The translations under genes were made by a program, and so were the position numbers. Below, in pieces: positions 24,280 through 63,972 of a stretch of 64,000 nucleotides of DNA. The notes under the pieces were generated by a model, which saw only the letters and a program-made list of their open reading frames with translations, did no database searches and had not been told where the DNA came from. The stretch is from the NCBI GenBank assembly GCA_963765765.1, contig CAVXYC010000030.1:64001-128000 (forward strand). Reading direction: 5' to 3'. Numbering within the stretch: position 1 is the stretch's first letter; each line of letters opens with the position of its first letter. The stretch is from an uncultured Chloroflexia bacterium (GTDB lineage Bacteria > Chloroflexota > UBA6077 > JACCZL01).

Positions 24280-27238
24280 TCAGTCGCCCATCCCGTGGCG
24301 GAGCGCCCAGGCGATCGCTTCCGCTCGGCTGCGCACACCGAGCTTGGTATAGATGTGCGTCAGATGCCGGTCAACGGTCGCTACGCTGACCACCAGAGCG
24401 TCGGCAATCTCCCTGGTGGTAGCTCCGGTCACGAGGTGCTCGAGAACGGTGCGCTCGCGTGTGCTCAACCTATCGGACGCTTCGCTGGAGGGGACGGAGT
24501 CTGTCTCGGACACGGGTATCTGGAAGGCAATTGCCTCGTCGATGGCCTGGTCAATGGACATCGCTCGTCCGGTGGTCCAGGCTTTCTCAAAATCGTCCGA
24601 TGCCAGCCGCGCCCGAGCAGATTCCGTCGTCTCCGTAATGACCGACTCGGCTAGAGGTATCGGCATGACGTCGATGGCCGCGCTGAACGCATGGACGGCG
24701 CTGATCAGTCGGACCGCCCGCTCTGGATCGCCGAGTGCATTGATCAGAGCTGCCCAGGTAGCCAGGCCATTGTGAACGGTCCATGGTGTGCCCAGGCCCT
24801 GAAGCTGTGTGACGCCTGAGCGTACGAGCTCCAGCGCCGGACGATAGTCTCCGCGCCGAAACGCTACCAGGCCCTTGAGGTGGGAACAGATCGCTTCACC
24901 TTCCAGGAACCCGATCTCCTGCCGAATCGCGACAGCGCGGCCGTAGTGCTCCCACGCGGCGTCCAGATCATTGCCAATGTGCGCGGCCAGCGCCAGCAGG
25001 TGCACTGACCAGCCCATCAGCCACCGATCGCCGCACGCCTCGGCCACGCTCAGACTTCGCTGCCCCAGGCGCCTGGCGGCCTCGGCATCGTTTTCGAAAT
25101 ACCGAACACGCCCCATGACGTGAAGAACCCAGGCGTCAGCCCACTGATTGTGATGCTCCCGAGCGAGAGGCAGGGCCTCCTCGAGGAAGTGTTCAGCCGC
25201 GGCGCTATCGCGTTGGATGTGTGCCAACCAGGCTGCCCCGTAGAGCGCCTTGAGTCTCGCCTCGCCACCCGCCAGGATCGCTCAAGCGCCTGCTGCAACC
25301 AGCGCCGCCCTTCACTAATATGACCCCGCTGTGGCCAGAACCAGGCCAGCGCACCCGTTAAGCGAAGCTGCTCATCGTGGGCACGATCATCGGCGAAAAA
25401 GTAAGTGAGCGCAGCCCGCAGGTTATCGTGCTCGGCCTGCAGGCGGTCCAACCAGGCCAGTTGTGCTCGGCCACGCAGGAGCGGCTCCGCCACCTCCGCA
25501 AGCTGTAAAAAGTAGCCTGCCTGCCACCTTCGCATCGAAGCCAGCTCAGCCTCACTTTCGAGCTGCTCAATGCCGTATTCCCGAATGGTCTCGAGCATGG
25601 TGAAGCGCGGCTCGCCCGATGCCGCGTCCATGGGTCTGATCAGGCTCTGACTGATGAGCGACTCGACCCCATCGACGACTTCGTTCTCGACGATTGACCA
25701 ACGTTGATTACCAACGGTCGCGGCAGCCGCTGCTTCGGCGGACTCGAGCGTGAACCCGCCAACGAAGATTGCCAATCGTCGAAACAACAATTGTCCTCCG
25801 ATGGGAGCAGGTTGTAGCTCCAGGCGATAGTATTACGAAGCGTGCGCTGCCGATCGGGCAAATCCACGTTCCCACCGGTCAGGAGCTGCAGCCGCGGCGG
25901 CGATTGGGTCTCCTGAGGAGCGCCCGCAATCGTCGTCGCGTCGGGATCGGTAAGCGTGCCTCCGAGCCGAACGAGCATCGACTCAGCGGAGAAGATTCGG
26001 ACACGAGCCGCTGCCAGCTCCACGGCCAATGGCAGTCCATCGAGCCGGTGACAGATCTGTGCGACAGTCGCCGCGTTCTCCGAAGTGAGCATAAAGTCCG
26101 GCCGCACGGCGCGAGCGCGGTCTACAAATAGACGGACCGCCTCGGAGGCGGCGAAGCGATCGAGCGTCGTGAGTGACCCTGCGTCGGTCGGTTGCACGCT
26201 CGGCAGGTCAAGTGGCGGGACCGTCCGCTCACGCTCACCCGAGATTCGGAGTGCTATGCGACTTGTCACTAACAGGGTGCACCCGGAACAGCGCGTCAGG
26301 AGAGCCGCCAGGGCCGCGCCGGCAGCGTGCACCTGCTCGAAGTTGTCAAGTATCAAGAGCATGCGCTTGCTGCCCAGGTGATCGGCTAGCACCTCAATCG
26401 AAGGTCGTCCCTGCACGTCTGGCAGACCGAGCGCCTGCACCACCGTTGGAATGACGAGATCGGGATCCACGATGGGTGCCAGGGGTACAAAGCACAACCC
26501 ATCGGCGTAGCGGTCCGCGGTCAGCGCGGCGAGCTGAATGGCAAAGCGCGTCTTGCCCGTCCCGCCGGGTCCGGTGAGCGTCATCAACCGACAGTCAGTC
26601 AGGGCAGCGCATGCCTCCGCCAGCTCGCGCTCGCGTCCGATAAACGTCGTTAACTGCTCCGGCAGGCTCGGAGCGTGATGTCCGCCGGTACGGAGCGCTG
26701 GAAATTCTTCCGGCATTCCAGCCACGATGAGCTGAGCTAGGTGCTCCGCGCGCGGCAGATCCTTGAGCCAGTATTCGCCCAGATCGCGAAGCGCGACGCC
26801 GTTAGGAAGATCCGCTTCTATGAGCTCACGCGTGGATCGCGAGACGAGAATCTGCCCGCCATGGCCGGCGGCGCCGATACGCGCGGCCCGGTGCACGTCG
26901 AGCCCGATGTAGTTGCCGCCGACCACATCGGGCTGTCCCGTGTGGATGCCCATACGCGCGCGTATGGGACCCGCCGCCGCTGCCAATGCCGCGGCCAACG
27001 CCCGCTGGATGTCCAGTGCCGCGTTTACCGCATCGAGCGCACGGGCGAAGACCAAGAGGAAGCCATCGCCCTCGTTGCTGACTTCGTGGCCCCGACGCTC
27101 CGCGAGCGTCGCCCGAACCAGGGAGTGATACGACTGAAGCACGTCGCTGTAAGCATCGCCAAGCGCATGCAGCAGGCGAGTGGAGCCTTCAATATCGATC
27201 ACCAGGAACGTCACAGTCCCTGCGGGAATTGCGGTCAA
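24280..27238 (-). CDS. Adenylate/guanylate cyclase-STAND ATPase-TPR-LuxR regulator, two frameshifts (near 25790 and 25245)
   Basis: TFLVIDIEGST/EGDGF/RMGIHTG cyclase; GPGGTGKT Walker A; LILDNFE; LDGLPLAVELAA; LSTRERTVL...IYTKLGVRSR HTH. Confidence 0.88.
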
Positions 27239-27382
27239 GCCGCTCGCTCCTCGCGAGTCTTGAAAGGATGGTTACTCAGATTATCTCGCATTCAGAGTCG
27301 ATCGTCAGTGGCCTCATCTAACAATAGAGCAGAAGCAAACCAAGCGAATCGATCGTGTGGGGAAAAGAGGAGAGACACAACC

Positions 27383-27892: not shown

Positions 27893-28129
27893 TTAATGGG
27901 CGTAACTTCCGCGTACGCGTTGACCAACGTTGTCCGCCTGCTGTTGCGTGCTCAAGCGAGCCTGGAAATAGGGCTTCTCAAAGGTTCGCTCGAGCTCCAC
28001 GATGATGGGCTCCGAGACGATTAGTTCCCATTCACCAATTAGCCACAGGCGCAACAGGCGATCGGGGATGCTATCGCGCACAGTGAAGCCTGAAGCCAGG
28101 ACATTCGTGTCCAGGACAGCGCATTTCAC
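27893..28129 (-). pseudogene. PIN-domain toxin, C-terminally truncated
   Basis: AVLDTNVLAS...LIVSEPIIVEL motifs; only 78 aa; start overlaps the antitoxin stop (GTGA). Confidence 0.75.
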
Positions 28130-28455
28130 CCGCGATCGGAACTCAGAGTGGTCCTGCGGTTCTCAGCTCTGACTTCGGCGATCGCTCTGGAGATCTCACG
28201 CTCTACCTGCTCACCTGGGGCATCAGCAAACGCCGCCTGGCTGGCATCAAGGATCGCTAGATCCTTCTGGCGCTCGGCGTCCATTTGGTTTAGTCGATCC
28301 AGATCTTGAGCGGAGACAATGGCCGCGACAGGGATACCGCTTTTCTCAACGAGCACTCGCGCCTGGCGGCGAAAGACTCGGTTGAGCAGATCGCTGCATT
28401 GGGCTCGGGCTTCGGATGCTTTGATCGTTTGAGTCATAGGTTCACGCTCCGACAT
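28126..28455 (-). CDS. Phd/YefM family antitoxin
   Basis: TIKASEARAQCSDLLNRV...VLVEKSGIPVAAIVS; AAGGAGG RBS. Confidence 0.85.
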   Translation of the reverse strand: MSEREPMTQTIKASEARAQCSDLLNRVFRRQARVLVEKSGIPVAAIVSAQDLDRLNQMDAERQKDLAILDASQAAFADAPGEQVEREISRAIAEVRAENRRTTLSSDRG

Positions 28456-28483
28456 GGCACCTCCTTTCCAAGTGTCATAGTCC

Positions 28484-28526
28484 GTACAAATTTGTACAGA
28501 GTAGACGAAACTTGACAGAATGTCAA
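28484..28526 (-). promoter_or_regulatory. Sigma70 promoter and palindromic operator of the TA operon
   Basis: Minus strand TTGACA (28526-28521), 17 bp, TACTCT (28503-28498), followed by palindrome GTACAAATTTGTAC (28484-28497). Confidence 0.7.
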
Positions 28527-28581
28527 TAGGGCAATCGAGCCGCGGTGCCGATAACCATATAAACTCTTCATTGGATCATGG

Positions 28582-29652
28582 ATGCGAAGTCTCCGAATTG
28601 ACGACAAGCTGCCTTCCTGGGACAAGACTGAACCGCGGCATGAATGGAAAGGCATTCTAGTTGGCAACGGGGCTAGTCGTGCAGTTTGGGACGACTTCCA
28701 ATACACCTCTCTCTATGAAACGTCTCTATCAGGTGGTCCATATGGGAAGGTGAATAAGTATTTGAGACCCTATGCTGAAGAGCGTGGTCTGTGGCATTCG
28801 CTAACCAAAACTGACCAGGTCATATTCGAGTCAATGAAGACTCAGAATTTTGAACAAGTATTATCAGCACTGATGACTGCCAGGACCGTATGCGAATCAC
28901 TAAACATAGAAACTGCAACGATACAATCGTGCTACAAGAGCGTTCAAAATGCACTGATACACGCTGTTAAACATGTTCATATACCACATAATCTTGCTAA
29001 ACCTATGTTTGAGAATATAAGAGAATCACTCAGAATGCATTCAGTAATATTCTCAACGAACTACGATTTAATAATATATTGGGCTATTATGGATGGTTAG
29101 TATAAAGATTTTCCAGACTACTTCTGGGGGAAGGACAGTAGATTTAACAACACAGATACTAATACAAGACGAGTTGACGTAACGCGACTTCTATTTCTTC
29201 ATGGAGCTCTGCACCTGTATCGTGCTCAGGACGGTGAAACGTTTAAGTCCAAGAGTGACTTTGGCAGTACACTGTTAGATCAATTTGGAACATTGATGGG
29301 TGATGACTACACCCCGTTGTTTATAACCGAGGGAACAGCTCAAAATAAGCTTGCGTCCATTCACCATTCTGATTATCTGTCTTTTGCTTATCGAGAGTTT
29401 GAGCAGCACGATGGCCCGCTGGTGGTGTTCGGACAGGCACTTGGAGATAGTGACAAGCATTTGGTTGAAGCGATCGACGGCTGGGGAAAGAGGCCCATAG
29501 CAATTGGGATGTTGCCCAGCGACTCTGAGAGTATCAGGAAGCGGAAACTTGCTCTCCATCAGCAATTACCAAAGGCTGAGCTGCTTTTCTTCAATGCAAC
29601 AACGCATCCTCTGGGGTCGCCGAACCTTAAGGTTGCGCGGCCGACTCCCTAA
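28582..29652 (+). CDS. DUF4917 / SIR2-like domain protein interrupted by in-frame TAG at 29098
   Basis: ILVGNGAS, IFSTNYDLIIYWA, FLHGALHL, PLFITEG..K..I..SDYL, LVVFG.AL..D.HL; both halves in one frame; visibly AT-richer than flanks. Confidence 0.75.
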
Positions 29653-29975: not shown

Positions 29976-30864
29976 TCATAGGCTGGTTTTCTCCATGGCC
30001 TTTCGGCCGCTTCGCTTGGCCAGGTGCACATAGATCTGGGTCGTGTCCAGTCGCGCGTGCCCCAGCCAATCCTTGAGCTGAAAGGCACTCACCCCGTGCT
30101 GAGCCTTATAGGTCGCGAAGGTATGCCTGAAGGAATGGCACCCTGCCCGCTTGGTGATCTGAGCACCCCGACGGTACTTGGTCACGAGTTTCTGCACTCC
30201 ACGCTGGCCGAGTGGCTCACCATACTGGTTCAAGAAGAGATGGTCATCGGACACGTCAGGTCGGACCTTCAGCCAGCTCCTGATGGCTTGCATGCCTTTC
30301 TTCTCCAGCTCGATCTGACGGGTCACCATGCCTTTACCCACCACAGTGATGAGCTGGTGCTCCAGGTCGACCGCTTCAAGCCGTAGGCTACACAGCTCGG
30401 ACACCCTGATCCCTGTCTGCAAGAACAGCTGGAGAATGGCAAAGTCCCTGGGGTTGCCCCCAGCTTGCGCCAACATTCTGGAATATTCATCGGGTGCCAG
30501 GATGGAGCGGGAGTTCTTCTCTTTCTTGGGTGTGTCCAAGCCTTCAGCAGGGGAGTGGGCGATGACTTGCAGATCTTCCCGCGCGAAACGGAAATATTCT
30601 CGGATCGCGGCCAGCTTGCGGGCTCGAGAGACCGCCCGAGAGTTTCTTCTCGCCCAGGCAGGCCAAATACTCCCGCACATCCACCCGAGCTACGTGATCC
30701 ACCGCGGCGATGGTGGCGTTGTTGGCGTGGATCCAGTCAATGAACTGACTCAGATCCGTGCGATAGGCACTCTGGGTGAGCTCGCTCCTGTTTCTGGCCT
30801 GCAACCAGCGGAGGAATTGCTCAAGCGCGAGTTCTAACGTGGGGGCTGTGGTGGTGATGGTCAT
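29976..30864 (-). CDS. XerC/XerD-like tyrosine recombinase, one frameshift near 30632
   Basis: SAM-like N-domain (TQSAYRTDLSQF, SRARKLAAIREYFRF); catalytic R (TGIRVSE), K (GKG), HSFRH, LGH, Y (TTQIY). Confidence 0.9.
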
Positions 30865-30967
30865 AGAGCTGGCTGGTGTCCTTCCAGGAACGATCACCAA
30901 AGAATGATCGACCTGACCCCAGAGTCTCACGACGGGCCCCGCGGCACAACAGCCTTTCTCCAGTAAA

Positions 30968-31109
30968 ACATGGTTCGCATAACCATGTCAATCGGGAGTT
31001 ATTGCGACCCCAAAGTAAGCGGGGTTGAGATCAGCTTGGGAAGCTCTGGTTCGCAGAAGAAGCGTTATGAGACCCGCGAGTCAGTCCGATAATGGGGGTT
31101 ATCGGAACG
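30968..31109. other. Cluster of dif-like recombination sites upstream of the recombinase
   Basis: GGTTCGCATAA half-site (30972); GGTTCGCAGAA-GAAGCG-TTATGAGACCC (31048-31075); CAGTCCGATAA-TGGGGG-TTATCGGAACG (31082-31109). Confidence 0.7.
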
Positions 31110-36445: not shown

Positions 36446-36863
36446 GCAGCTCACGAAGGCTTCGTGAGCTCCGCTGTCAGCGACAATATTCTGAATTGGT
36501 TTTCAGCGTCGTCGACAAGCCAGTAGAGCTCGAGCTCGTTTCCAGCATCCTAGCCGTTGATAGCTTTAGAGTCTCTCGTCAACTCGGCGGCACAACAGCG
36601 TCCGGCGGCATCGCAAAACCGTCACCGGGCATAACCGTTTCATAAACGTAACGACTCTCTTGCATGACGTAGTTAAGGCTGTCACACAGAGGGTCTTATA
36701 GCCCGACCCGTTCTTGGCTCGCGGGCACACATTCTCATCTCAAACGAGTTGGCGATTGCCCTCACGCGATGCAATTTGGCCTCATTTTGGTTAAATTGTG
36801 TAACGTATTCGCCCACGTCGTGCTGCAAACAGAGGAGTCTCATCCGTTGGTCATCCTGCGCCA

Positions 36864-39800
36864 GTGATCCCTAGAGCTCGGTGGGTGCGTCATAGCGCAA
36901 GCGTAGGATTGGCCCTCGGCGTGCTGGTTGCAACCAACGCAGCTCTGCCTTCGGCCACCTCGGCGCGTGAGCCGCTGCACACCGTGCCGCTGCAGGTCAC
37001 ATCCCCGGGCACGGCGGGCAGCCCTACGGCTGCCGCTCCTACCAACATCATCGAAGCCCAGAAACCTCAGGCATCGGCAACGGTCCCGCCAACAGTGACT
37101 CCGAGCGCCGCTGACATCGAGGCCCTGCGGCGTCTGAACGCCGGAACACAACCATCGGCAACGCCTCGCGCGGCCACCCGTACTGCCACTCCGCGCGCCG
37201 GGGCACGCGGTGCTACGCTTACATCAACCCCCACGAGCACGGTCACGTCAATTCCATCAATGACCGCCTCCGCGACGGCCAGCCCAACGTCGGCAGTGCA
37301 GGCTGTATCGTCACCGGAAGCTTCCGCGACGCCCTCGCCCACTGCTACACCCCCGACGGCGACCCCGACGCCAACGTCAACCGCGCAAGCTGCGCAGTTC
37401 CGGGCCGCGTCCAGCGGAACTGTGTCGTACGGCCAGGATGCCTGCTTGCGTCCCTTCCAGTATTGGGACACGTTGGAGGCGGCTGCGCGGGCTGCCGGTG
37501 TCGACCCTGAGATCGTGGGCGCACTCATGATTGTGGAAGGGTCCGGGGAGCAAGCGGTATCGCCAGCTGGGGCGATGGGCCTGATGCAGCTTATGCCGGA
37601 CAAGTTTCGAACGGGTGACGATCCATTTGACGTCACCACGAATCTCCGCCGAGCAGCCGAGCACATCAGCCTTTTGCGCGCCCGTTGGGGCAGCACCGAT
37701 CGCATTGCCGCCGCGTATTTCGGCGCGATCGATGGCGGAGGCAACATCACCGGCGCGTCTGACGGAAATGTGGATGGCTACGAATACGTTCGGCGATTCC
37801 AGGGCGCCACCGATTGTCTGCGCACGGGCCTCGGCCGCGGCGGCGCCGCCGTCGCACGTCTCGCTTCGCCGCTCGGCATCTCGCTCGCGCGAACGAATGT
37901 CTCATTGGACTACTGGGGCGACGTCAGCAAATCGCCCGGCGAGCCAGCCCGCACCGCCGCGGAGCAACAGCGATTCGGAACACGCCACCTGGCCTGGGAC
38001 GTGATCATCCCCGACGCGCCGAGCAACGGTCGCGGCTCGCCGGTGTTCGCTCCCGTCGAGGGAACCCTACAGCGCACCAACGATCCGGCCGGCGGACCGA
38101 ATGGCCTGGTGATCGAGAATCGATCATCTGATCTCCGCGTGCGACTTCTGCACATGGATCGGCTCGCGCCCAATATCGCCACGGCCACGCAGGTGCAGGC
38201 GGGCCAGTGGGTGGGCGTCCTGGGCGGACAGGGGACCGAACAATTCCCGCATCTGCACGTCTCGCTGGAGCGGCTTTCCAACGGTGATCGCCTCGACCCG
38301 GCGCGGTTTTTCTTCCGACCAAATTCAGATGCGCGTATGTCCGGCAGTGGAAGCTCTGCCATGTTAGCGATACCTTCCGCGGACCTCATGGGAGCGATTC
38401 GCGTGCCAGCCAGCGGCGATGTGACCAGCGCAAATATTGTCGGCGATATCGTGGCGTGGTCCGAGGTAGACGGCGACCAGCGACACGTTCGTGGCTACGA
38501 CTCCGAGGTGGGTCTCGCTTTCCAGGTTGGAGATGCCAGCCAGGGTGAGCAGTTCAGCCCGGCGCTCGGGGTCAATCACCTGGCGTGGGTGGACACGCGC
38601 AATGCCTGGAACAGCGGCAAAAGCATCCAGGACGGTTCATTCGGTGACGTCTACATCTATGACCTGTCCACTGGCGACGAGCGCCGACTCACAAGTGTTC
38701 CAGGTGAATACTCAGATCTCGTTGTGGCCGGTGATCGCGTACTCTGGGTAAGCGCCGCGGGCAATCTTCAGGCGCTTCACCTCATGGAGCTAACCACTGG
38801 AGCGCATCAGGTGGTGGATTGGACGATCGGATCCATCTCGAGAGTCTCCGCTTCCGACAACGCCATTACCTACGTCGTGCAGCAAGCCACGGCCCAGTCA
38901 GACGGCCGTGAGATCCACCAGTACGATCTCGGCTCAGGACAAGTCACAAGCCTCTTCCGGGGGGCAGTGGGACAGCCGGTCCAGGTTGGACAGATGGTGG
39001 CCTGGGACGAGCAGCTTGGTAACGGTAAGCAAAGCATTATCCGCGCACTGGATACGCGCACGGGCGATATTCAGCTCTGGGCGGGGGACCCGGCTGTGCG
39101 GAGCGACCTTCAGGCGTTCGATCACACGCTGCTCTGGCATGAAAAGAGCCCTGACGGCTCACAGGTGCTGGTGATTTACGGCTTGAGCTCGAATACACTG
39201 ACTCGCATCGCCGATTCGTCGATCGACACTCGAGTAGCGGCATCGCTGGGGCAGGGCACGGTGCTCTGGAAGGCGGCAAGTGGAGAGCTGGTCGTCTCAC
39301 ATCTACGCGACTGGGACATTGGCGGCGGCCGCTACTTCGGTGAAGATGACGCCCAGCGCCGGCTGGCCGGTCAGACGGGCTACCGCGTGACCGATGACGG
39401 CGGAATCCCGATGTGGAGCGAGTATCAGCGCCTGGGAGGCGAGGCGGAGCTCGGCCGGCCGCTCTCCGGTCGCCTCCAGCTTTCGGACGGTGGCGTGTAT
39501 CAGCTCACCGAGCACGCACTGCTTCACTGGCAGCCAGAGCGAGGGCAAGTTGAGCGTGCAAGTGCATTTGAGATTCTCTCTCGACTGGGCTACGACGGCT
39601 GGATGCACGCGGTGAGGCAGGTTCCATTGCCCGCGAGTGTCGTGGCAAACGGTGATCCGGAGCGGGCTCGCCAGGTGCGCCTGAGCTGGCTCACCGATCC
39701 ATCGCTGAAGGCAGCCTACCTGGCGCCACCGGACGGTGTGGCGGCGCGAGCCTGGGGACTGGAATCCGCTATCAACCGCTACGGATTGCCAGCTTCTCCA

Positions 39801-40070
39801 CCGGAGAGCTTCGGTCCCTTCGTGGCCCAGAGGTTTGAGCGGGCTGTGCTCCAACACTGGGTGGTCGCCCAGCCCGGGCAGCCCGAGAATGTCGTCACGA
39901 CAGCTCTGGTTGGATCGCTCATCCGAGAGCTAATTCAGGATGGACTTGGCGTGGCGGACACCAACGGCAGTCCGCTCGACGCGCCCGTTGCCACGCTGAG
40001 TGCCGACCTGACGAATCGTTGGGTGTCACCCCGCGGCGTATCCGGGGCGGACGTGCCCAGTGGTGAGTAA
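36864..40070 (+). CDS. Secreted multidomain peptidoglycan hydrolase: SLT lytic transglycosylase + M23 peptidase + beta-propeller + C-terminal wall-associated repeats
   Basis: Signal peptide; Thr/Pro/Ala linker; IVEGS..AVSPAGAMGLMQLMP, AAAYFG; HLAWD and PHLH Zn motifs; WVDTRN..DVYIYDL repeats; LGGEAELGRPLS / YGLP..QRFERAVLQ repeats. Confidence 0.85.
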   Translation: MIPRARWVRHSASVGLALGVLVATNAALPSATSAREPLHTVPLQVTSPGTAGSPTAAAPTNIIEAQKPQASATVPPTVTPSAADIEALRRLNAGTQPSATPRAATRTATPRAGARGATLTSTPTSTVTSIPSMTASATASPTSAVQAVSSPEASATPSPTATPPTATPTPTSTAQAAQFRAASSGTVSYGQDACLRPFQYWDTLEAAARAAGVDPEIVGALMIVEGSGEQAVSPAGAMGLMQLMPDKFRTGDDPFDVTTNLRRAAEHISLLRARWGSTDRIAAAYFGAIDGGGNITGASDGNVDGYEYVRRFQGATDCLRTGLGRGGAAVARLASPLGISLARTNVSLDYWGDVSKSPGEPARTAAEQQRFGTRHLAWDVIIPDAPSNGRGSPVFAPVEGTLQRTNDPAGGPNGLVIENRSSDLRVRLLHMDRLAPNIATATQVQAGQWVGVLGGQGTEQFPHLHVSLERLSNGDRLDPARFFFRPNSDARMSGSGSSAMLAIPSADLMGAIRVPASGDVTSANIVGDIVAWSEVDGDQRHVRGYDSEVGLAFQVGDASQGEQFSPALGVNHLAWVDTRNAWNSGKSIQDGSFGDVYIYDLSTGDERRLTSVPGEYSDLVVAGDRVLWVSAAGNLQALHLMELTTGAHQVVDWTIGSISRVSASDNAITYVVQQATAQSDGREIHQYDLGSGQVTSLFRGAVGQPVQVGQMVAWDEQLGNGKQSIIRALDTRTGDIQLWAGDPAVRSDLQAFDHTLLWHEKSPDGSQVLVIYGLSSNTLTRIADSSIDTRVAASLGQGTVLWKAASGELVVSHLRDWDIGGGRYFGEDDAQRRLAGQTGYRVTDDGGIPMWSEYQRLGGEAELGRPLSGRLQLSDGGVYQLTEHALLHWQPERGQVERASAFEILSRLGYDGWMHAVRQVPLPASVVANGDPERARQVRLSWLTDPSLKAAYLAPPDGVAARAWGLESAINRYGLPASPPESFGPFVAQRFERAVLQHWVVAQPGQPENVVTTALVGSLIRELIQDGLGVADTNGSPLDAPVATLSADLTNRWVSPRGVSGADVPSGE

Positions 40071-41763: not shown

Positions 41764-43785
41764 TCAGTTGGAGCTACGCTCCCGGGGCGGGACTACAACC
41801 TGGCCAGGGGCTTCACCGTGATTCAGGCGACGTGACAGACAGGCCGACGGGCAGGATCCGGCTCGTTGGCTCTGAAGCACCTCGTGGGTCACAGGCGGAA
41901 CGTCGCCTTCACCAAAAAGTAGGAAGCGAAAGACCTGGATCAACGGCGGAGTCTCGGCCCAGGAGAAGTAAACGTTGGGAATCTTTCCCGTCATATCGCG
42001 AATGTGGAGCAGAATCGCGGCAATGGCGTTCGGTACGGTGCTACTCCGAGCCCGCAACACGGGATAGCCGGCGACCTCTACGCCCTCGATGGTGATCTCG
42101 CCTGAGAACTCGGATGGATCCACCACGGTCACTTCCAGAAACAGCACCGGGTCGTGCTCTGGGATGCGATTGCAGGAGCGCTGCTCCTGCACCTTCTGCT
42201 CGTAGTGCTGTGGCGTGCGGATATCCGTGTCATGCGCAATGATTCGCAACTCGCCGCGGGCCACATCTCTTGTAATGAAGCGTTCTGCCGTTTCATCCAT
42301 GACCACGCTTGAGACTCGTAGCTCCGTGGACCGTGAGATCCGCGAAATGATGGACACTACCACGATCGCTAGGATGAAGAGCGCCGCGATCTTCACGCCC
42401 TCGGGTCGTTCCATGATGGTCACGACGGTGGTGAACACAAAGATGATGGCGATAACCGTGAACCAGACGGTTGCCCTGCGCTCACCGTGGCGGTGTGCTG
42501 AGAGCGCCACCGCCACGGTGGCCGAAGTCATGAGGGCGAGGACGCCGGTGGCATAGGCGCCGGCCTGCGCTTCTACGTCTGCCCTGAAGATCAGCGTGAT
42601 GACGGCGCAGACCGCTGTGAAGATCAGCACGAGCGGGCGTGTGGCCCGCGCCCAGTCGGGTGCCATGCCGTAGCGCGGCAGGTACCGTGGCACGATATTC
42701 AAGAGACCCGCCATGGCGGAGGCCCCAGCGAACCACAGGATGAGGATTGTGCTGAGGTCGTACAGCGTGCCGAAGCCGTCGCCGAAGAGCTGATGCGCGA
42801 GATAGGCGAGAGCACGCCCGTTGGCTTCGCCACCCTCCTGAAATTCATGTGCGGGTATCAGCACCGTGGTCACCAAACTGCTGGTGATTAACATGATGCT
42901 CATGATGCCCGCGGCGGCGGCCAGCAGCTTGCGTGTATTTCGTATTCGGCCTTCCGGATGCTCCGGATCATCCTGCGGATCGCCGCGGACCGACGGCATC
43001 ACGACGACACCCGTTTCGAAGCCGGAGAGACCCAGCGCGAGTCGCGGGAACGCCAGCAGTGCTGCCCCAATCATGGCCATCGGACTCCCGTATTCGCGAA
43101 ACAGCGCGGCCTGCCAGGACAACAGGCTGATGGGATGATCAATGATTTGAAACAGGCCGGCGCCAATGACAATCACGTTCAGCACGAGGTACGTCACCAC
43201 CAGCCCCACGGCTAGGCCGATGGCCTCGGTGAGACCCTTCAGAAATACACCGCCAAGGAAGCTGATGAGGATCAGCGTGAGCAGCACTTGATGGCCGCGC
43301 GTGAAGCGCATGTACGGGTTTTCCATAATGTGCGCCGTGGCATCGGCCGCTGAAAGCGTGATGGTGATGATGAATCCCGTGGCAACGAACCCGATGAGGC
43401 ACAACACGAACAGCTTGCCATGCCACCAGGAGAGTAGCCGCTCCAGCATGGAGATCGACCCGTCACCGTGCGGGCTTTCCGCCGCCACGCGCTGGTACAT
43501 GGGCAGCGCGCCAAGAAGGGTGATAGCCACGAGGATCAGCGTGGCGATAGGGGACACGGCGCCGGCGGCAAGCGCCGCGATACCGGGCTGGTAGCCCAGG
43601 GTGGAAAAGTAGTCCACTCCCGTGAGACACATGACCCGCCACCAAGGATGCCCTCGGTGCGGATCCCGTTTCTCGTACGGGCCCGCCCGCATCTCGACCC
43701 CCGGGGTTTTCAAAAGCCACTGCTTGAGCGGGCCCGAGGAGTGGGACGTTGAGGTGGAGGCTGACGCCATCACGACCCTTTGCAT
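41764..43785 (-). CDS. APC-superfamily amino acid/ion transporter (frameshift near C-terminus)
   Basis: [42 protein letters not shown]; multiple TM segments. Confidence 0.85.
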
Positions 43786-43907
43786 GTTGTAACTATGATT
43801 GTTGAGGCACGCGCCGTGCCCGGTTGATACTCGCTCATCAAGATGTTACTCGTCTACTAAGGCGCCCGATCGCGCGAACCCTGCTGGCGCCGATTCTGTC
43901 TTCCGCG

Positions 43908-44723
43908 CTACTTGAACAAACCCTCGGCGTTCCCGAATGCAATCCGCTCGGCCAGGTCGCGCGGCAGCTGATCGAGCCAGCCACGCACGGCCGCCATGAG
44001 CTGGGGTAAACGCGTCCATTGCGGCGTGATCCACGTGTCCGTCCCGATCATGAATCGATCCGGGTGCTGCTGAAATGCGGCCGACCAGCGTGGATCCAGG
44101 CGACCGCCCGGTGCCACGTCGGATCGGAGCGCAAGCTCCACCCACACATTCGGATAGCTGGTCAGAACCTGGCTCACGGTGGATGCATCGGCGCTCATAC
44201 CCGCATGGGCCCAGAGGATTGATGCATCGGGATAGGTGAGCGCGAGCTGCCGCACGCCTATGGAATCGGTGTGAGCGTGGAGAAAGAGCCCGCGCTCGGC
44301 GCTGACCTGACCGAACGCTTGAACGACTGGGGCGCTCGTGTCGCCGGCACTCAGATGAAATTCTCCGAGACCTACATACGCGTGCTGATTCAGACGCTGC
44401 ATGGAGTACTCGAGGACATCCGCGTCGTACATCCAGGTCGTCATGTCTGCGCGCGTGCGATACGGTCGCAGCACCGGAAGGATCCGCTCAGGATCGCGCT
44501 CCCACAGCATGAGCGTGCCATCATCCGGCGTGCTCGACACTAGTGCTCGATACACGCCGGCCTGGTCAAGCAGCGCCATGATCTCCTCCGGGGCATAGAC
44601 GGTCCATGCATCGGAGCTGTAGTGAAGATGCGTGTCGAAGATAGGCAGGTCTTGACTATGAGCAGACGAGGAGGATAGTGCCCAACCGACCGCGAATGCG
44701 ATGGCGAATAGCAATCGATGCAT
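43908..44723 (-). CDS. Exported amidohydrolase family protein
   Basis: Signal peptide; DTHLHY, GLGEFH, HAH, WAHAG, FMIGTD. Confidence 0.85.
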   Translation of the reverse strand: MHRLLFAIAFAVGWALSSSSAHSQDLPIFDTHLHYSSDAWTVYAPEEIMALLDQAGVYRALVSSTPDDGTLMLWERDPERILPVLRPYRTRADMTTWMYDADVLEYSMQRLNQHAYVGLGEFHLSAGDTSAPVVQAFGQVSAERGLFLHAHTDSIGVRQLALTYPDASILWAHAGMSADASTVSQVLTSYPNVWVELALRSDVAPGGRLDPRWSAAFQQHPDRFMIGTDTWITPQWTRLPQLMAAVRGWLDQLPRDLAERIAFGNAEGLFK

Positions 44724-44829
44724 GTCAGTCTCTCCTCTAGCGCAAAAGAGCGGCCTCCATCACGTATTCCAATTCAGGAAAACATCAGGAAGACCGCTCT
44801 GTATCGAACCTCGGATCGGGTGTTGCCGG

Positions 44830-56522: not shown

Positions 56523-56778
56523 TTGCGCTCAGCTCAAGCCTTCCCACCCATTCACTTCTGTGCAATCTATTGGCCGTATGTCACCTCATGCCAGAATCTG
56601 GCATAGAAGGTGCTTCAGGCGTCACCACGAATGTCAGAGGAGTGGGTCATGTCTCGGTGTCAGCATTGCAAAGGTGATGATTTGGTGTGGTTCACACCAC
56701 GACGTTTCGGTCGTCCAGGCATCGTTCTGTGTCGGTTGTGCGATCGCGTAAGTGTGCTTCTAAGCCGCATGTAGTGGC

Positions 56779-59403
56779 TCAGGGCGTCGGAGGAGCGGAC
56801 GCTTGCTCCGACGGTTTCGTACCAACGAGTATCCGGCCACGGGCCGGGGCGTACCTGCTGGTGAGATTGAGCGTCCGTGGGCTCGTCTCGCCCGATGCGA
56901 TCACCGAGCGTTGAAGACTTACACTGAAGCCATCTGACCGATCCTCGATCCACGCCTCCTGACCCATGGGAGCCGACGGATCTTCGTGCCGTTCCGGTTC
57001 GTCATCCGGCGGCGTCGTTGCGGTGATCACAGGCTCCAGGACTTGCACGGTCCAGGTGGGCCTGGTGCCGTACAGCGCCACAATGGCGTTGTCTCCGTAT
57101 ATGGAGGACTGAATCAGTAACGGCTGCGGGGTGTTGTTCGTGAATCGGAAGTCCCGGTTCTCCGCCGCGTCCACTACCGCGTCAAGGCCTGGCTGGCCGC
57201 GCGGTGGTTCGCCTGCCCGAACGGTCCAGTGGGCCGGAGCCTGACGCTCTTCAATGCCGTAACCGGTCCAGAAGACGACCTGGGCAAGTGACGACGCGAC
57301 CAGGTTCACTCCGCGCGCGATCACGGATGCATCATCCGGCGCCGATCGGTATCCTCGGCCCTCATTCACGGTACCCAGCGCGTCCAGTAAGGAGAAGGTC
57401 TGGCCCGGCAAGACGAGTCGACCGTGCAGGTCGCCCAGCGCCCGATCCGTATTGGCTCGAGTCCACTGATCGAGCCCGCCAAGCGGCAGCGACGCGTCCA
57501 GTACAAGCTCACGAATATTGAGCGTACCCGGCGTCGTCCAGGCCCAGGGCATGTACCGGCTGTGGGGGGAGTGTCGCGGGTCCGCCCTGAATCAGCACCT
57601 GCTGCTCCAGGGCAGCAGCCGCTGTGCTGAGATCGAGCTGCTGGCCGTCAGCTCCTGGCACGGCCACGCTCAGACCACCCGGTGACCAGTTGAATCGCGC
57701 GTGGACGGGAGGGCGCGCCACGCGCTCAGCGAGTGGCCGCAGTAGTCGGCTTGTCTCACCATCCAGCAGATGGAGCGACACCTGTGAGCGACCGTCGACG
57801 TGCGCTTTTCGCACACTCAAGATGGATGCAATTTGGGATCGATCCAATTGAATCGATTCATTGCCGGAGGTCACCGTGAGAGGTTGCGCCAGCATTCGCT
57901 CTGCCATGGCTCGGGGGGCGGCCAGGTCAGCCTCTGACACGTTGGGAGGAACCTCAGCGGTAGGAAGGCGAAGTGTTCCCGCGCCCAGCGCCTGCAACCG
58001 ATCACGGATTACTTCGGCGCTGGCGGATCGATCCAGTGTTCGACCGGCCCTGCTCGCCTGGATTCGAACGGTTCCAGATGGCTCAATGAGCATGGCCGCG
58101 TCCTGGGCCACGCCGGTGGTGGACTCCACCCGCTCAGCCAGGGGCGTGAGCGCGGCCTCCATTCGGGCATCATCTACCTGATAGACCAACGGAGTATCGC
58201 GCTCCAGAACCAGTCCACGGGCCTGTTCAAAAAGCTGTCGAGCCAGAGTGCCGCTGCGGCCAATCTGGAGTGCGCGTTGAGCCGTTGCGGCCGCGTCGAA
58301 CCGGACACCCAGCTCGCCGGCCGCGAGGTAGAACTCCTGCCCGGCAATTTCCAGCGTGATCGCCTGGCGGGCGTATTCAGCGAATTGTGTTTCCAGAGCC
58401 CGCGTAGCCTCGTCCACGGAGCGTCCGCCCAGGTCCACACTCAAGGCGTGCACGCCCGGGTAGATACGCTGATTGAACGCGAGCTGGTAGAGCCAGATGG
58501 CCCCCAGCCCAACAAGAACAACGGCTAACGCGACGATGCCCGCGAACTTGGCCGGGCTACTCCAGATTGGTTCGGGTAAAGCAGCTTCAACGGAGCTTGG
58601 CTGACTGGCCACCGACGGCGCGGGAGTGTCCGTGGCCTGCACCACTGGCTCGACGATCAGGACGATGACGCTAATGTCGTCGCTGCTCCCGGCCGTACGT
58701 GCCGCGCGCACGAGTCGATCCGCCGCGCCACGAGCGTCTTCACCGTGACAGCTCTAGCAATGGCGGCATCGTCGAGCGTAGCGCTGAGCCCATCGGTGCA
58801 CAGCACAATCACATCACCGTCCTGGAGCGGCTCCTCTAGAAGGTCCACCGCCACATCCGCCGCTGCGCCAAGTAGACGGGTTGGAGCACTTTTGAGTGGG
58901 TGATCCTGAAGCCGCGATCGGTCAAGGCCCTGCAACTCTTGCTCCCCGGCCCACGTGTGATCCTGAGTTAGCTGCCGCGCCCGGCCATGGCGAATGAGAT
59001 ATGCGCGACTGTCGCCCACATGGCCGATGATGAGTCGACTGTTATGCACCACGGCCGCGGTGCACGTGGATGCCATGCCTCGTAGCGATGCGTCGTTGGC
59101 CGCGAGGCCCAGGATGGATTGACCGGCCTCCCGTAACGATCGATCCAGTGTGGCCGTAGGTGAGCCGTCGAACGCACGCCGATAGGTCTCGAGCGTGGAT
59201 TCCACGGCTGTCTGGCTGGCCACCTGGCCGCTGTCGCGCGGACCAACGCCATCGGCCACCACGTAGACCACGCCCATGCGCGCCCGCGTGGTCATCAGGT
59301 CAGGCGCCCATCGACCCACGGCGTCCTGGTTGACTTCGCGCCCCGGCGCCACGATGGATACCTGCGCGCTGGCCGCCACTCCGAGCGCGCCTGTCTCAGG
59401 CAC
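56779..59403 (-). CDS. PP2C phosphatase - TM - peptidoglycan-binding (PG_binding_4/YoaR-like) - VanW-like - G5-like fusion protein, two frameshifts (near 58720 and 57550)
   Basis: PP2C motifs GREVNQD, VADGVG, HVGDSRAY, LTQDH, LCTDGL, with the terminal motif AARTAGSSDDISVIVL at the start of the next ORF; TM then RIYPGV...VDLGG; VanW-like LVLPGQTFSL, GLDAVV, DFRFTN. Confidence 0.75.
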
Positions 59404-59407
59404 GATT

Positions 59408-59519
59408 GCGAGTGAAGAGTGAACAGTGAAGAGTGAACAGTGGACAGAGTCCCGGTGATTCCTGGGATCGTGCTCGCCAGATCCCGCGTTTCACTCTTAA
59501 CTCTTCACTCTTCACTCGC
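59408..59519. repeat. Heptamer tandem repeats arranged as an inverted pair
   Basis: (GAGTGAA/CAGTGAA)n at 59410-59445 and (TTCACTC)n at 59490-59517. Confidence 0.75.
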
Positions 59520-59573: not shown

Positions 59574-60209
59574 ATGACAGCGCGTCGCGCAATACTCTTG
59601 ATCGTAGTCATAGAAGCGGTGTTTTGCGCGGCAGTTGCAAAGGCCGGGGGCAATCGTCCCAACCTCCACTTCGTTGAGGGTGGCATTGTCACCTGGGTGA
59701 ACGCCTTTCAGATCTTTGCGCTAAGTGTCGTTGCGGTCGCAGTGTACCGTGCGCGTAAAGACGAGAACGACTCAATGGGCGCCGCGTTCTGGCTCGTCGC
59801 CGCCGCCGGCGCCATCTTCTTGACGCTCGACGAAACATTCGAGTTTCACGAGCAGCTCGGCAACTATTTTCAAACCCACCGCTTCCCTCGTCCTCCGCTC
59901 CTGAACGGCTGGGGCGATGTCGTACTCATCGCGTACGCATTTCCGGTGCTCGGCATCTGCTGGTGGTTTCGCCGGGAGATCCTTGCGGATCCAGAAGTCC
60001 TCCGCTACCTGCTCCTGGGCGGCGGCGTTCTCGTGCTCTCGCAGCTCGTCGATACCTTCGGCGTACATCAGGGGCGAGAGCGCTTCTGGTGGTCCGTGTC
60101 CGAAGAATCGTCCAAGCTTATCGGATTTGGGATCCTCTTCGGCGCGGTGATCCTGAAGTGGTCCAAGGTCCGCCTCGCGCACCGGCAAGCCGCCCACGCG
60201 GCGAGCTAA
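59574..60209 (+). CDS. Hypothetical multi-pass membrane protein
   Basis: About 5 TM helices; FLTLDETFEFHE and SEESSKLIG motifs. Confidence 0.75.
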   Translation: MTARRAILLIVVIEAVFCAAVAKAGGNRPNLHFVEGGIVTWVNAFQIFALSVVAVAVYRARKDENDSMGAAFWLVAAAGAIFLTLDETFEFHEQLGNYFQTHRFPRPPLLNGWGDVVLIAYAFPVLGICWWFRREILADPEVLRYLLLGGGVLVLSQLVDTFGVHQGRERFWWSVSEESSKLIGFGILFGAVILKWSKVRLAHRQAAHAAS

Positions 60210-61489: not shown

Positions 61490-61592
61490 TGACACCCGAT
61501 GGCTGGATCGCGGCACGCACGACTTGACTTCGGCCATCATCTCATCAAAGATTCTCGCCGCGCAGTGAAGCAAGCAGCGTGAATGCGATCGC

Positions 61593-63972
61593 ATGAACAA
61601 AAAAGAGCTCACCGAAACAGACATACGCACCAAGTTCATCACGCCCGCCATCTGCGGTGCCGATGGAACGAAGTGGGACAAGATGACCCAGTTGCGCGAG
61701 GAGTTCTACTTCACGCGCGGCCGTGTCATCGTGCGCGGAAAGAAAGTGAGTCGCGGCGCGGCCAAAAAGGTCGATTACATCCTCTATTACAAGCCCGGCA
61801 TTCCGCTCGCCCTTGTTGAAGCGAAGGACAACAACCACGCGGTCGGCGCGGGGATGCAACAGGCCCTCGAGTACGCGGAGTTCCTCGATATCCCCTTCGC
61901 GTACAGCAGCAATGGCGACGCGTTCCTGGAGCACGATCGGACCGGCACAGGGCCAACCGTTGAGCGCGAGATTCCGCTGGATCAATTCCCTTCACGGATG
62001 AGCTCTGGTCACGCTACAGCAAAGCGAGAGGACTCACGCCAGCCGAAGAAGAGGTAGCGACTCAGGAATACTACGAGGATGGCTCAGGCAAGGTGCCGCG
62101 CTACTACCAGCAGATCGCCATCAACCGGACCGTCGAGGCCATCGCCCGCGGCGAGAATCGCATTCTCCTCGTCATGGCCACCGGCACCGGCAAGACCTAC
62201 ACCGCGTTCCAGATCATCTGGCGGCTATGGAAGGCCGGTGCCAAGAAGCGGATCCTCTTCCTCGTCGATCGCAACATCCTGGCCGATCAGACAAAGACGA
62301 ACGACTTCAAACCGTTCGGTCAGGCGATGACCAAGATCACCAATCGCACGGTCGACAAGGCGTTTGAGATCTACCTCGCGCTGTATCAGGCGGTCACGGG
62401 AACTGAAGAAGAGCAGAACATCTACAAGGAGTTCTCGCCCGACTTCTTCGACCTGGTGGTGGTGGACGAGTGTCATCGCGGGAGCGCGGCCGACGACGCT
62501 TCGTGGCGAAAGATCCTCGAGTACTTCTCCTCGGCCACGCAGATTGGTTTGACGGCCACGCCCAAGGAGACGAAAGACGTTTCCAACATCGAGTACTTCG
62601 GCGATCCGATCTACACCTACTCGCTCAGGCAGGGAATCGACCGACGGATTCCTCGCCCCCTATAAGGTCATCCGCATCGGAATCGACAAGGACTTGGAAG
62701 GGTGGCGGCCTGAGAAAGGACAAGACGGATAAGTACGGCCAGCTCATCGAAGATCGCGAGTACAACGAGACGGATTTCGACCGAATCGCTCATCCTGGAG
62801 AAGCGCACCGAGGTCGTCGCCGCCAAGATCACCGAGTTCCTGAAGGCCACCGATCGCTTCGCCAAGACCATCGTCTTCTGCGAGAACATCGATCACGCCG
62901 AACGCATGCGGCAGGCGCTGGTGAACGCCAATCCGGACCTCGCCGCCGCGAACAGCAAGTACGTCATGCGGATCACGGGCGACAACGATGAAGGCAAGGC
63001 GCAGCTCGACAATTTCATCGACCCGGAGTCCACATTCCCGGTCATCGCCACCACCTCGCAGCTGATGACGACGGGCGTCGATGCGCAGACGTGCCGACTG
63101 ATCGTTCTCGACAAGCACATCGGCTCGATGACCGAGTTCAAGCAGATCATCGGTCGTGGCACGCGCATCAACGAGGACTACAACAAGCTCTACTTCACCA
63201 TCATGGACTTCCGCCGCGCCACGGCGCTGTTTGCCGATCCGAACTTCGATGGCGATCCGGTGCAAATCTACGAGCCAAGGCTGGCGATCCGCCCGTGCCG
63301 CCTGACGAACGCCAGACGGCCGGCAGCGAGACCCGGCGACGAGGGCGCAGACCTCCGGATGACGGCGGTGGACCTGTCGCTCCGACGGACCGCGCCAGCG
63401 AAGTACTACGTCAACGACGTGGAAGTCTCGCGTTGTCTCCGAGCGCGTCCAGTATCTCGATGCCGACGGCAAGCTCATCACCGAATCGCTCACGGACTAC
63501 ACGCGCAAGACGGTCCGCAAGGAATACGCGTCGTTGAACGCGTTCCTGAACGCCTGGAATGATGCCGACCGCAAGCAAACCATCATCGACGAACTCGCCA
63601 GCCAGGGCGTATTCCTCGATGAACTGGCGGAGCAGGTCGGGCCACGACTATCGATGCCTTCGATCTCGATCTGCCACGTCGCATTCGATCAGCCGCCGCT
63701 CACGCGGCGGGAGCGGGCCGAAAGGGTCCGCAAGCGCAACGTGTTCGCCAAGTACGGCGACAAAGCGCGCGCCGTACTCGATGCCCTGCTAGAGAAATAC
63801 GCCGACGCGCGGCATCGAAGAGCGTCGAGTCGCTCGAAATTCTCAAGGTGGACCCGCTGACGCACGTTTGGGACACCGGTCGAGATCGTCAATCTGTTCG
63901 GCGGCAAGGCAGCAAGTATCTCACTGCCATCCACGAACTCGAAATCGCAGCTCTATCAAGGAAGCAGCCTGA
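61593..63972 (+). CDS. hsdR: Type I restriction enzyme R subunit (EcoAI/EcoEI-like), many frameshifts
   Basis: [23 protein letters not shown] nuclease motif, [43 protein letters not shown]. Confidence 0.92.

Follow-up and report, generated by a model that had tools for sequence, protein, structure and literature searches.

Cell wall-related Ser/Thr signaling in bacteria is understood almost entirely from the side of the PASTA kinases, which bind peptidoglycan (PMC6213207), and the phosphatases that partner these kinases are usually taken as constitutive. In one such phosphatase, PstP of Mycobacterium tuberculosis (Rv0018c), a 237-residue catalytic domain is connected by a juxtamembrane region and one transmembrane (TM) helix to an extracellular domain of 191 residues (PMC3052367). 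VanW domains, in turn, long lacked a known function and were then shown to provide the catalytic domain of L,D-transpeptidases that form a second family, for which a Cys/His/Asp triad was proposed (Bollinger et al., PMC11348318). Ldt4, a member of that family, is laid out as TM helix, PG4, VanW, G5, and a disordered tail, and exchange of the Cys for Ala (C286A in Ldt4, C298A in Ldt5) abolished cross-linking while some carboxypeptidase activity was retained (PMC11348318). A PG4-VanW protein of C. glutamicum has also been reported (PMC7775120). Here we describe a gene of an uncultured Chloroflexia bacterium that joins elements of these systems, i.e. a PP2C phosphatase domain and a VanW-type ectodomain, in a single protein. 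The gene lies at 59403..56779 on the minus strand (as do all its parts given below) of a 64,000-nt stretch of contig CAVXYC010000030.1, referred to as the window.

Like PstP, the predicted protein consists of a cytoplasmic PP2C domain, a juxtamembrane linker, a single TM helix, and an extracellular C-terminal domain. Unlike PstP, whose 191 extracellular residues are known to us by their length only, it has an ectodomain of about 570 residues with recognizable PG4, VanW, and G5 modules. The two also differ in that PstP is co-transcribed with PknB, whereas the fused gene has no kinase as a neighbor. With the VanW L,D-transpeptidases (Ldt4 and Ldt5 of C. difficile, YoaR-type proteins of B. subtilis) the protein shares the order TM, PG_binding_4, VanW, G5 and, with confidence, the fold, but it carries a 250-residue PP2C domain in place of the short N-terminal cytoplasmic tail. 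Similar to the PASTA kinases (PknB, PrkC, and Stk1), it is a single-pass, receptor-like protein with an ectodomain drawn from the peptidoglycan-synthesis machinery, although of opposite sign; it has neither a PASTA repeat nor a kinase domain, its output is that of a phosphatase, and the likeness is one of functional analogy rather than membership. Judged by its profile matches, the protein can be assigned to both the PP2C family and the VanW homology family.

Structure of the fused gene and its reading frames

In the deposited DNA, the gene is spread over three open reading frames (ORFs) that overlap end to end: ORF1 at 59403..58657 (248 aa), ORF2 at 58711..57509 (400 aa), and ORF3 at 57552..56779 (257 aa). 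It starts with GTG at 59403 and ends with a stop codon at 56781-56779. The span of 2625 nt corresponds to 875 codons including the stop and, since one missing and one extra base cancel each other, to a corrected protein of about 874 aa. Pfam profiles detected PP2C_2 (E = 1.9e-19, 70.5 bits; cut-off 24) and PP2C (E = 3.8e-11, 43.6 bits; cut-off 20.3) in ORF1, PG_binding_4 (E = 4.5e-11, over the curated cut-off) in ORF2, and VanW (PF04294; E = 4.1e-15, 55.9 bits; cut-off 27) in ORF3. The domain order of the window protein is thus PP2C, linker, single TM helix, two PG_binding_4 modules, VanW, and a G5-like tail. In alignments, the three ORFs were collinear with six uninterrupted homologues of 806-874 aa, and a genome of the same genus (G001) contains an open frame of 884 aa with the same domains.

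The junction itself can be followed within one frame. ORF2 opens with the terminal PP2C motif (RAARTAGSSDDISVIVL) and continues unbroken through a Pro/Ser-rich linker, the TM segment (FAGIVALAVVLVGLGAIWLYQLAF), and PG_binding_4, so that phosphatase and ectodomain can be seen to be joined without any frame correction. An initial annotation of this DNA had claimed exactly this, namely that the last PP2C motif shares an ORF with the linker, the TM helix, and the ectodomain, and the start of ORF2 confirmed it. The fusion is real and conserved in uninterrupted orthologues, and a stop codon between PP2C and the TM segment, which that annotation had named as a possible refutation, was found neither in the uninterrupted homologues nor in the metagenome contigs. 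Its placement of the second frameshift was only partly correct: the frameshift is present and the proposed total of about 870 aa fits, but it joins the PG_binding_4 region to VanW and not VanW to the G5-like part, as the latter two both reside on ORF3. It is hardly conceivable, and was rejected, that the fusion is an artefact of two neighboring genes encoding a PP2C and a YoaR-like protein. Nothing speaks for such an artefact except the broken window frames, and it is contradicted by ORF2, on which the PP2C end motif, linker, TM helix, and PG_binding_4 are contiguous, as well as by the intact orthologues, comprising seven independent full-length uninterrupted ORFs from NCBI, JGI, and Logan.

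At the first frame break (58744..58745), one base (G on the plus strand, C in the gene) is missing between AIARAVT and GEDARG. The second break consists of one extra base at 57530 (near 57527-57530 according to the DNA reading), between LGLDDA and TLNIRELV. Read on the DNA, both are single-base length differences at short runs. Logan contigs from four metagenome runs were placed on positions 56700-59500 of the window to test these indels. At position 58744, a G was inserted in the sole covering contig of run X3 and in that of run X4 (two of two contigs); at position 57530, one base was absent in the sole covering contig of X1 and in that of X4 (again two of two). The indels of the covering contigs, which derive from three runs (X1, X3, and X4), are exactly the two changes that restore the frame. 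These contigs had lengths of 151-403 bases, a depth of 2.3-3.8, and 1 to 33 other letters that differed from the window (0.7-8%); they represent close relatives from other samples and are not proof for the window strain itself. The runs cover only a fraction of 0.07-0.29 of the stretch, and these near-identical pieces from soil and urban metagenomes were used solely for the indel test.

Split genes are frequent in the same stretch. A Pfam scan of 85 other long ORFs revealed at least five further window genes that are spread over overlapping ORFs of the same strand. These comprise (i) an SBP_bac_5 gene in two ORFs (454-1164 and 1028-2251); (ii) a cyclase-AAA-TPR-LuxR regulator in three pieces (24280-27271); (iii) a DUF4917 gene (28555-29100 and 29101-29652) with an in-frame stop at 29100/29101; (iv) a tyrosine integrase in two pieces (29976-30987); and (v) the type I restriction gene HsdR in five pieces (61569-63860). 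The assembly consists of 33 contigs with an N50 of 382 kb. Because of the restoring indels in the contigs, the intact orthologues, and these other split genes, we consider both frame breaks most likely to be assembly errors. A true pseudogene in the window strain, with real frameshifts and no protein made, is very improbable. The deposited window does carry both breaks, and the break-free contigs, being from other samples and divergent elsewhere, may stem from other strains. However, both breaks are one-base differences at short runs and absent from every covering contig, no further lesion, stop, or deletion occurs over 874 codons, and many unrelated genes of the same 64 kb are similarly split. 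Equal suspicion is warranted wherever else a finding from this assembly rests on a frameshift.

Active-site residues and fold of the ectodomain

Since VanW is the catalytic domain of an L,D-transpeptidase family (PMC11348318), the ectodomain takes on a meaning different from that in the initial annotation. We compared its active-site region in two alignments. The first contained the last 257-300 residues of eight fused proteins (window ORF3, G001, and P0001-P0006) together with 12 canonical paralogues from the window genome and its relatives, consisting of the best matches plus five chosen for their long open frames. Each of the 12 canonical paralogues had exactly one Cys in the segment, located within an invariant GGICQV motif. 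At this column, the fused proteins carried Asn (six), Asp (one), or Thr (one), and no Cys was present anywhere in their last 257-300 residues. The His column was occupied by Pro in seven of the eight fused proteins, including that of the window, and by His only in P0006. Three Asp columns that are invariant in the canonical proteins, each a candidate for the triad Asp, persisted in eight, seven, and eight of the eight fused sequences, respectively. Moreover, about ten residues are deleted in the fused proteins directly before the Cys motif. In the window protein, the VanW domain (57070..57456; Pfam, column counts) accordingly has Asn in place of the Cys and Pro in place of the His.

The second alignment was based on 93 canonical representatives of 50% clusters, hand-picked from the best 150 matches; fragments, PP2C-only proteins, and some shorter or oddly fused entries were excluded. 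The Cys was present in 90 of the 93 canonical proteins and in none of seven fused proteins. Gln and Tyr columns were invariant in the canonical set (93/93 each) and not retained in any fused protein (0/7 each), with Leu replacing Gln throughout. His was likewise found in 93/93 canonical proteins but only in 2/7 fused ones, whereas the Asp column was conserved in both sets (92/93 and 7/7). The VanW profile scored the fused proteins at 44-71 bits (window ORF3, 55.9), compared with 107-142 bits in the canonical paralogues and, more narrowly, 107-121 bits in the 12 of them scanned by Pfam. In the three canonical TM-PG4-VanW representatives without Cys, the residue is Ser, and Gln, His, and Tyr are kept; these proteins may constitute a variant with a Ser nucleophile.

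We equated the Cys of GGICQV with the catalytic nucleophile since it is the sole Cys in the segment and since its spacing agrees: it lies 61 residues past the start of the domain match in a canonical paralogue (G000), and C286 of Ldt4 lies 58 residues into a VanW domain given as 228-357 (PMC12729407). With both the Cys nucleophile and the triad His lost, the VanW domain of the fused protein is predicted to be catalytically dead, i.e. a pseudo-L,D-transpeptidase that would be unable to cross-link peptidoglycan by the thioester route. Lacking the defining catalytic features of the VanW transpeptidases, the protein is not classified here as an L,D-transpeptidase. The loss of Cys and His lends new support to a putative non-enzymatic role in binding or sensing.

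It is quite unlikely that the ectodomain has remained catalytic, acting as an L,D-carboxypeptidase or endopeptidase through other residues, with PP2C as a second, independent or regulatory activity. Such a bifunctional enzyme would be in line with the Cys-to-Ala mutants of Ldt4 and Ldt5, which still yield disaccharide-tripeptide and thus show some hydrolysis in the absence of the Cys (PMC11348318), with the conservation of the Asp columns and of several active-site neighbors in the fused clade, and with the His retained in P0006 and, in the set of seven, in the representative P0007. It is difficult to reconcile with the replacement, in most fused proteins, of Cys, Gln, His, and Tyr, all of which are fully or almost fully conserved across the 93 canonical ones, with the halved VanW score, and with the deletion before the Cys motif; this shortened loop coincides with the only dip in confidence of the ectodomain model (blocks 41-42).

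The ectodomain is clearly homologous to the YoaR/Ldt4-type VanW L,D-transpeptidases, and both alignments and modeling indicate that the fold has been kept. It is 25-36% identical to the canonical representatives across about 580 residues. Directly after the membrane, the juxtamembrane motif RIYPGV..DLGG and two modules of the PG_binding_4 type occupy the extracytoplasmic segment 57531..58474 (Pfam, model); the Pfam match covers residues 131-242 of ORF2, and a second PG_binding_4 stretch was detected. A full-length AlphaFold model built from six sequences (mean predicted local distance difference test, pLDDT, 58.7) was of good quality only in its PP2C and TM helix portions, and was replaced by a model of the ectodomain (594 residues, 100-sequence alignment) with a mean pLDDT of 94.1 and a predicted template-modeling score (pTM) of 0.76. 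Residues 221-346 of this model could be superposed on the N-terminal domain of Ldtfm from E. faecium, which is non-catalytic (Z = 9.1-9.5; root-mean-square deviation 2.4-2.5 A over 96-98 residues). No sequence match to the ectodomain was found in the PDB at E 0.01. None of the solved structures among the fold matches listed covers the VanW part; single domains of a 594-residue model can escape such a search, so this is no evidence for a new fold. The result agrees with the description of the VanW fold as one without known relatives (PMC11348318).

The C-terminal beta domain (56815..57024) had been labeled 'G5-like' in the initial annotation. By sequence, the label stays below the cut-off: Pfam G5 (PF07501) matched with E = 0.15 and 12.8 bits (cut-off 23) over profile positions 5-75 of 75. 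By fold, it is supported. Foldseek retrieved the G5 domains of HP0197 (HP0197-G5, E = 2.3e-4), RpfB (9.9e-4), and IgA1 protease (1.1e-3), and VIA-align with model residues 508-594 gave modest Z values of 4.9 for the RpfB G5 domain and 3.3-4.4 for Aap and SasG. Furthermore, the tail aligns to the C-termini of the canonical paralogues, and its homologous region in one of them (L003) matches G5 at 3.4e-5.

The phosphatase half and its possible coupling to the wall

The cytoplasmic PP2C (PPM) Ser/Thr phosphatase domain occupies 58658..59337 (Pfam) and ends in a DDISVIVL motif; PP2C profile matches above the cut-off were also obtained for the orthologues. With orthologue P0004 as query, the closest solved relative by sequence was M. 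tuberculosis PstP (1TXO and 2CM1, E = 1e-21). The motifs ADG, GDSR, DGLS, and D(D/N)I/V align to PstP and are invariant in six orthologues, and the upstream REVNQD motif is present as well. We take the conserved Asp motifs of PP2C enzymes (NxD, ADG, GDSR, DGL, and D-D/N-I/V-T/S) to be metal-binding. Based on the profile matches above the cut-off and the motifs shared with PstP, the domain looks catalytically competent.

In all nine of the nearest PP2C-only relatives, the PP2C domain leads directly into a single hydrophobic segment and a further 1-452 residues. These proteins look like a receptor-type PP2C family in which ectodomains have been exchanged; the scaffold of PP2C, TM helix, and variable ectodomain is thus common among these relatives, and the VanW-type ectodomain is the rare variant of it. 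The initial annotation had described the PP2C partners of PASTA kinases as usually soluble or equipped with small ectodomains, which holds only in part, given that PstP exposes 191 residues outside the membrane and that nine of nine nearest relatives carry the hydrophobic segment. Among the nearest single-pass PP2C-only relatives are P0129, P0131, P0135, P0137, P0140, P0142, P0145, and P0149; the C-terminal region of P0129, for example, contains PD40 repeats, whereas that of P0137 spans about 450 residues without a Pfam family.

The PP2C domain is connected to the membrane by a Pro/Ser/Ala-rich juxtamembrane linker (58547..58657), which corresponds to unconserved alignment columns ~255-295. 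The linker differs between orthologues and was modeled with pLDDT <50 (residues 251-281 of P0004). It is followed by the single TM helix (58475..58546), modeled at residues 281-307 of P0004. By Kyte-Doolittle analysis, no other segment of the three ORFs exceeds 1.6 (the ORF2 windows concerned begin at residues 49-62), and each of seven orthologues likewise has only one such segment. As there is no signal peptide and only one hydrophobic segment, located behind a cytoplasmic enzyme domain, the predicted topology is single-pass with the N-terminus inside.

Several potential partners are encoded in the window genome. We detected 19 Pkinase matches, several of them split, including two frames with PASTA repeats (C20:814734-816377 and C32:189323-191850). 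Of three PP2C_2 matches, one (C31:6341-6979) shows the classical pairing with an adjacent kinase (C31:7284-7952). Because this other PP2C already sits next to a kinase, the fused phosphatase is an additional PP2C and not the operon partner of a kinase.

Taken together, we propose that a wall-binding pseudo-transpeptidase targets or regulates a Ser/Thr phosphatase which opposes the PASTA kinases of the genome, and assign a probability of roughly 0.55 to this reading. The dead transpeptidase would bind peptidoglycan through PG_binding_4, G5, and the remnant of a stem-peptide groove, in which the Asp columns and many neighboring residues are conserved. Binding to the wall would then place, cluster, or gate the phosphatase at particular wall sites, where PP2C would strip the phosphates added by Hanks-type kinases, including the PASTA kinases. 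That peptidoglycan is bound, what exactly serves as the ligand, how binding is coupled to phosphatase activity, and which substrates are acted on are all inferred; a role in sensing is likewise presumptive. With a transpeptidase domain that is probably dead, binding or sensing of the wall becomes a plausible function. A transpeptidase-derived extracellular domain reused as the sensor of a transmembrane signaling protein has a precedent in BlaR1/MecR1, where the penicillin-binding fold is still acylated by its ligand, the membrane region is multi-pass, and the output is a protease.

With a phosphatase that has its own large wall-related ectodomain, the possibility that phosphorylation is erased in a regulated or targeted manner can be tested on a concrete example. 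In addition, the protein contains a naturally occurring VanW domain predicted to be unable to act as a transpeptidase, and its ectodomain offers a clean ligand-binding scaffold for asking what VanW domains recognize. More speculative, and in our view doubtful, is the idea that it is the first cell wall-sensing Ser/Thr phosphatase, in which the pseudoenzyme would read a defined feature of peptidoglycan (for instance, donor stems of the tetrapeptide type or strands lacking cross-links) and, via ligand-dependent clustering or localization, switch a PP2C that reverses phosphorylation by PASTA kinases. If so, 'writer' and 'eraser' of one pathway would each respond to the status of the wall.

A number of observations weigh against the proposed wall-binding regulator of a phosphatase. 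The identity of the GGICQV Cys with the published catalytic Cys is presumptive, and the leftover carboxypeptidase activity of the Ldt4 and Ldt5 Cys-to-Ala mutants leaves room for residual enzymology (PMC11348318). On the cytoplasmic side, G-[PTA]-[RE] replaces the GGH of typical bacterial PP2Cs (e.g. PstP and P0137). The His of GGH presumably corresponds to the general acid of human PP2C, and its loss may have lowered the activity. Conformational signaling across the membrane appears doubtful, since the linker is variable and modeled as disordered; this would favor localization or clustering over rigid transmembrane allostery. Furthermore, no kinase, FHA, or cell-wall gene adjoins the fused gene, either in the window or in L016, a locus of 13.3 kb from a relative. 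Finally, all fused proteins derive from Chloroflexota metagenome-assembled genomes (MAGs) or metagenomes, i.e. from uncultured hosts, and with so tiny a clade the immediate biological reach is limited.

The ligand might also be something other than mature peptidoglycan, such as lipid II, a glycopeptide, or another wall-active antibiotic, or the ectodomain might act as a partner or decoy of a canonical VanW transpeptidase, with the phosphatase reporting on it. We regard this as unlikely. VanW genes do occur in atypical vancomycin-resistance clusters (PMC11348318), and the window genome retains an intact canonical TM-PG4-VanW paralogue with its Cys (C27:186114-188387, 757 aa). However, this paralogue is located on a different contig from the fused gene, the Pfam scan of the window found no van genes or antibiotic clusters near the latter, and the PG_binding_4 and G5 modules point to glycan or the sacculus as ligand.

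Distribution and gene neighborhood

In a word-indexed search for longer proteins with ORF2 as query, 8000 candidates were scored, and six of them reached E <= 0.001. These six have lengths of 806-874 aa and identities of 56-74%, and each contains PF13672, PF12229, and PF04294. One of these homologues is named by NCBI as a protein of a Chloroflexota MAG, and two others (P0002 and P0003) bear a JGI name that joins 'PrpC' and 'YoaR', which shows that both halves had already been met by automatic annotation. ORF2 matched in 30 of 31 related genomes, but closely only in the window genome and in G001 of the same genus (64% identity). The remaining matches in related genomes were 25-38% identical, with open frames of 124 to 1072 aa. 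When scanned by Pfam, the 12 canonical paralogues (633-862 aa) showed PG_binding_4 and VanW without PP2C. None of the 12 had a Pfam domain N-terminal of PG4, and hence no fusion of a kinase to VanW was found among them.

A HMMER search with P0004 against 1.84 billion representatives of 50% clusters gave 44,438 matches at E <= 0.001, 417 of them at E <= 1e-30. Among the best 150 of the 44,438, there was one full-length fused representative (P0007; 866 aa, 949 bits, domains confirmed) and five short fragments of 57-73% identity (P0008, P0009, P0080, P0091, and P0128). The query ranges of P0008 (400 aa) and P0009 (240 aa) equal those of window ORF2 and ORF1. A distant protein of 525 aa (P0092) combines PP2C, TM helix, and PG_binding_4, with 37% and 35% identity in two parts; it ends exactly at the end of PG_binding_4 and may be either a truncated record of a PP2C-VanW protein or a shorter architecture. 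The other matches among the best 150 consisted of the ectodomain alone or of PP2C alone. One of the canonical PG4-VanW proteins (P0049, 833 aa) has an N-terminus similar to dCTP deaminase/dUTPase, which probably reflects a join during gene calling.

A pattern scan of species-representative genomes yielded 60 matches and, from these, one relative (L016). Among the 80 metagenome PP2C loci kept (generic PP2C patterns; 30-42% identity), none showed similarity to the ectodomain at E 1e-3. As a protein containing both halves should outscore matches to one half among the best 150, the fusion appears to be very rare and confined to one small clade. The initial annotation did not know the architecture from characterised proteins and had named a prior description as a second possible refutation; none was found among the papers listed by our literature searches, although dataset S01 of the VanW transpeptidase paper may list such architectures.

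In the vicinity of the fused gene, a multi-pass membrane protein is encoded divergently on the plus strand (59574..60209), with 69% identity over 211 residues to its counterpart in L016, which stands in the same divergent position upstream of the orthologue. It matched no Pfam family, and the Atlas lists only clusters of 'hypothetical protein' for it. On the other, downstream side, both loci contain an EamA transporter and a luciferase-like oxidoreductase; in L016, a response regulator and a histidine kinase are inserted between the two. No relationship was seen between the small downstream ORFs of the two loci. A conserved operon was rejected, since only the divergent membrane protein and the EamA and luciferase-like genes are common to both loci.

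Two further features were noted elsewhere in the window. A plus-strand frame of 1088 aa (36804-40070) combines an SLT lytic transglycosylase domain with Peptidase_M23, corresponding to a large peptidoglycan hydrolase, and adjoins ORFs without Pfam matches (41764-44759). On the minus strand, a PIN_3/PhdYefM toxin-antitoxin pair (27893-28575) lies near the DUF4917 gene and the integrase remnants; together, these may form a small mobile island at ~27.3-31 kb.

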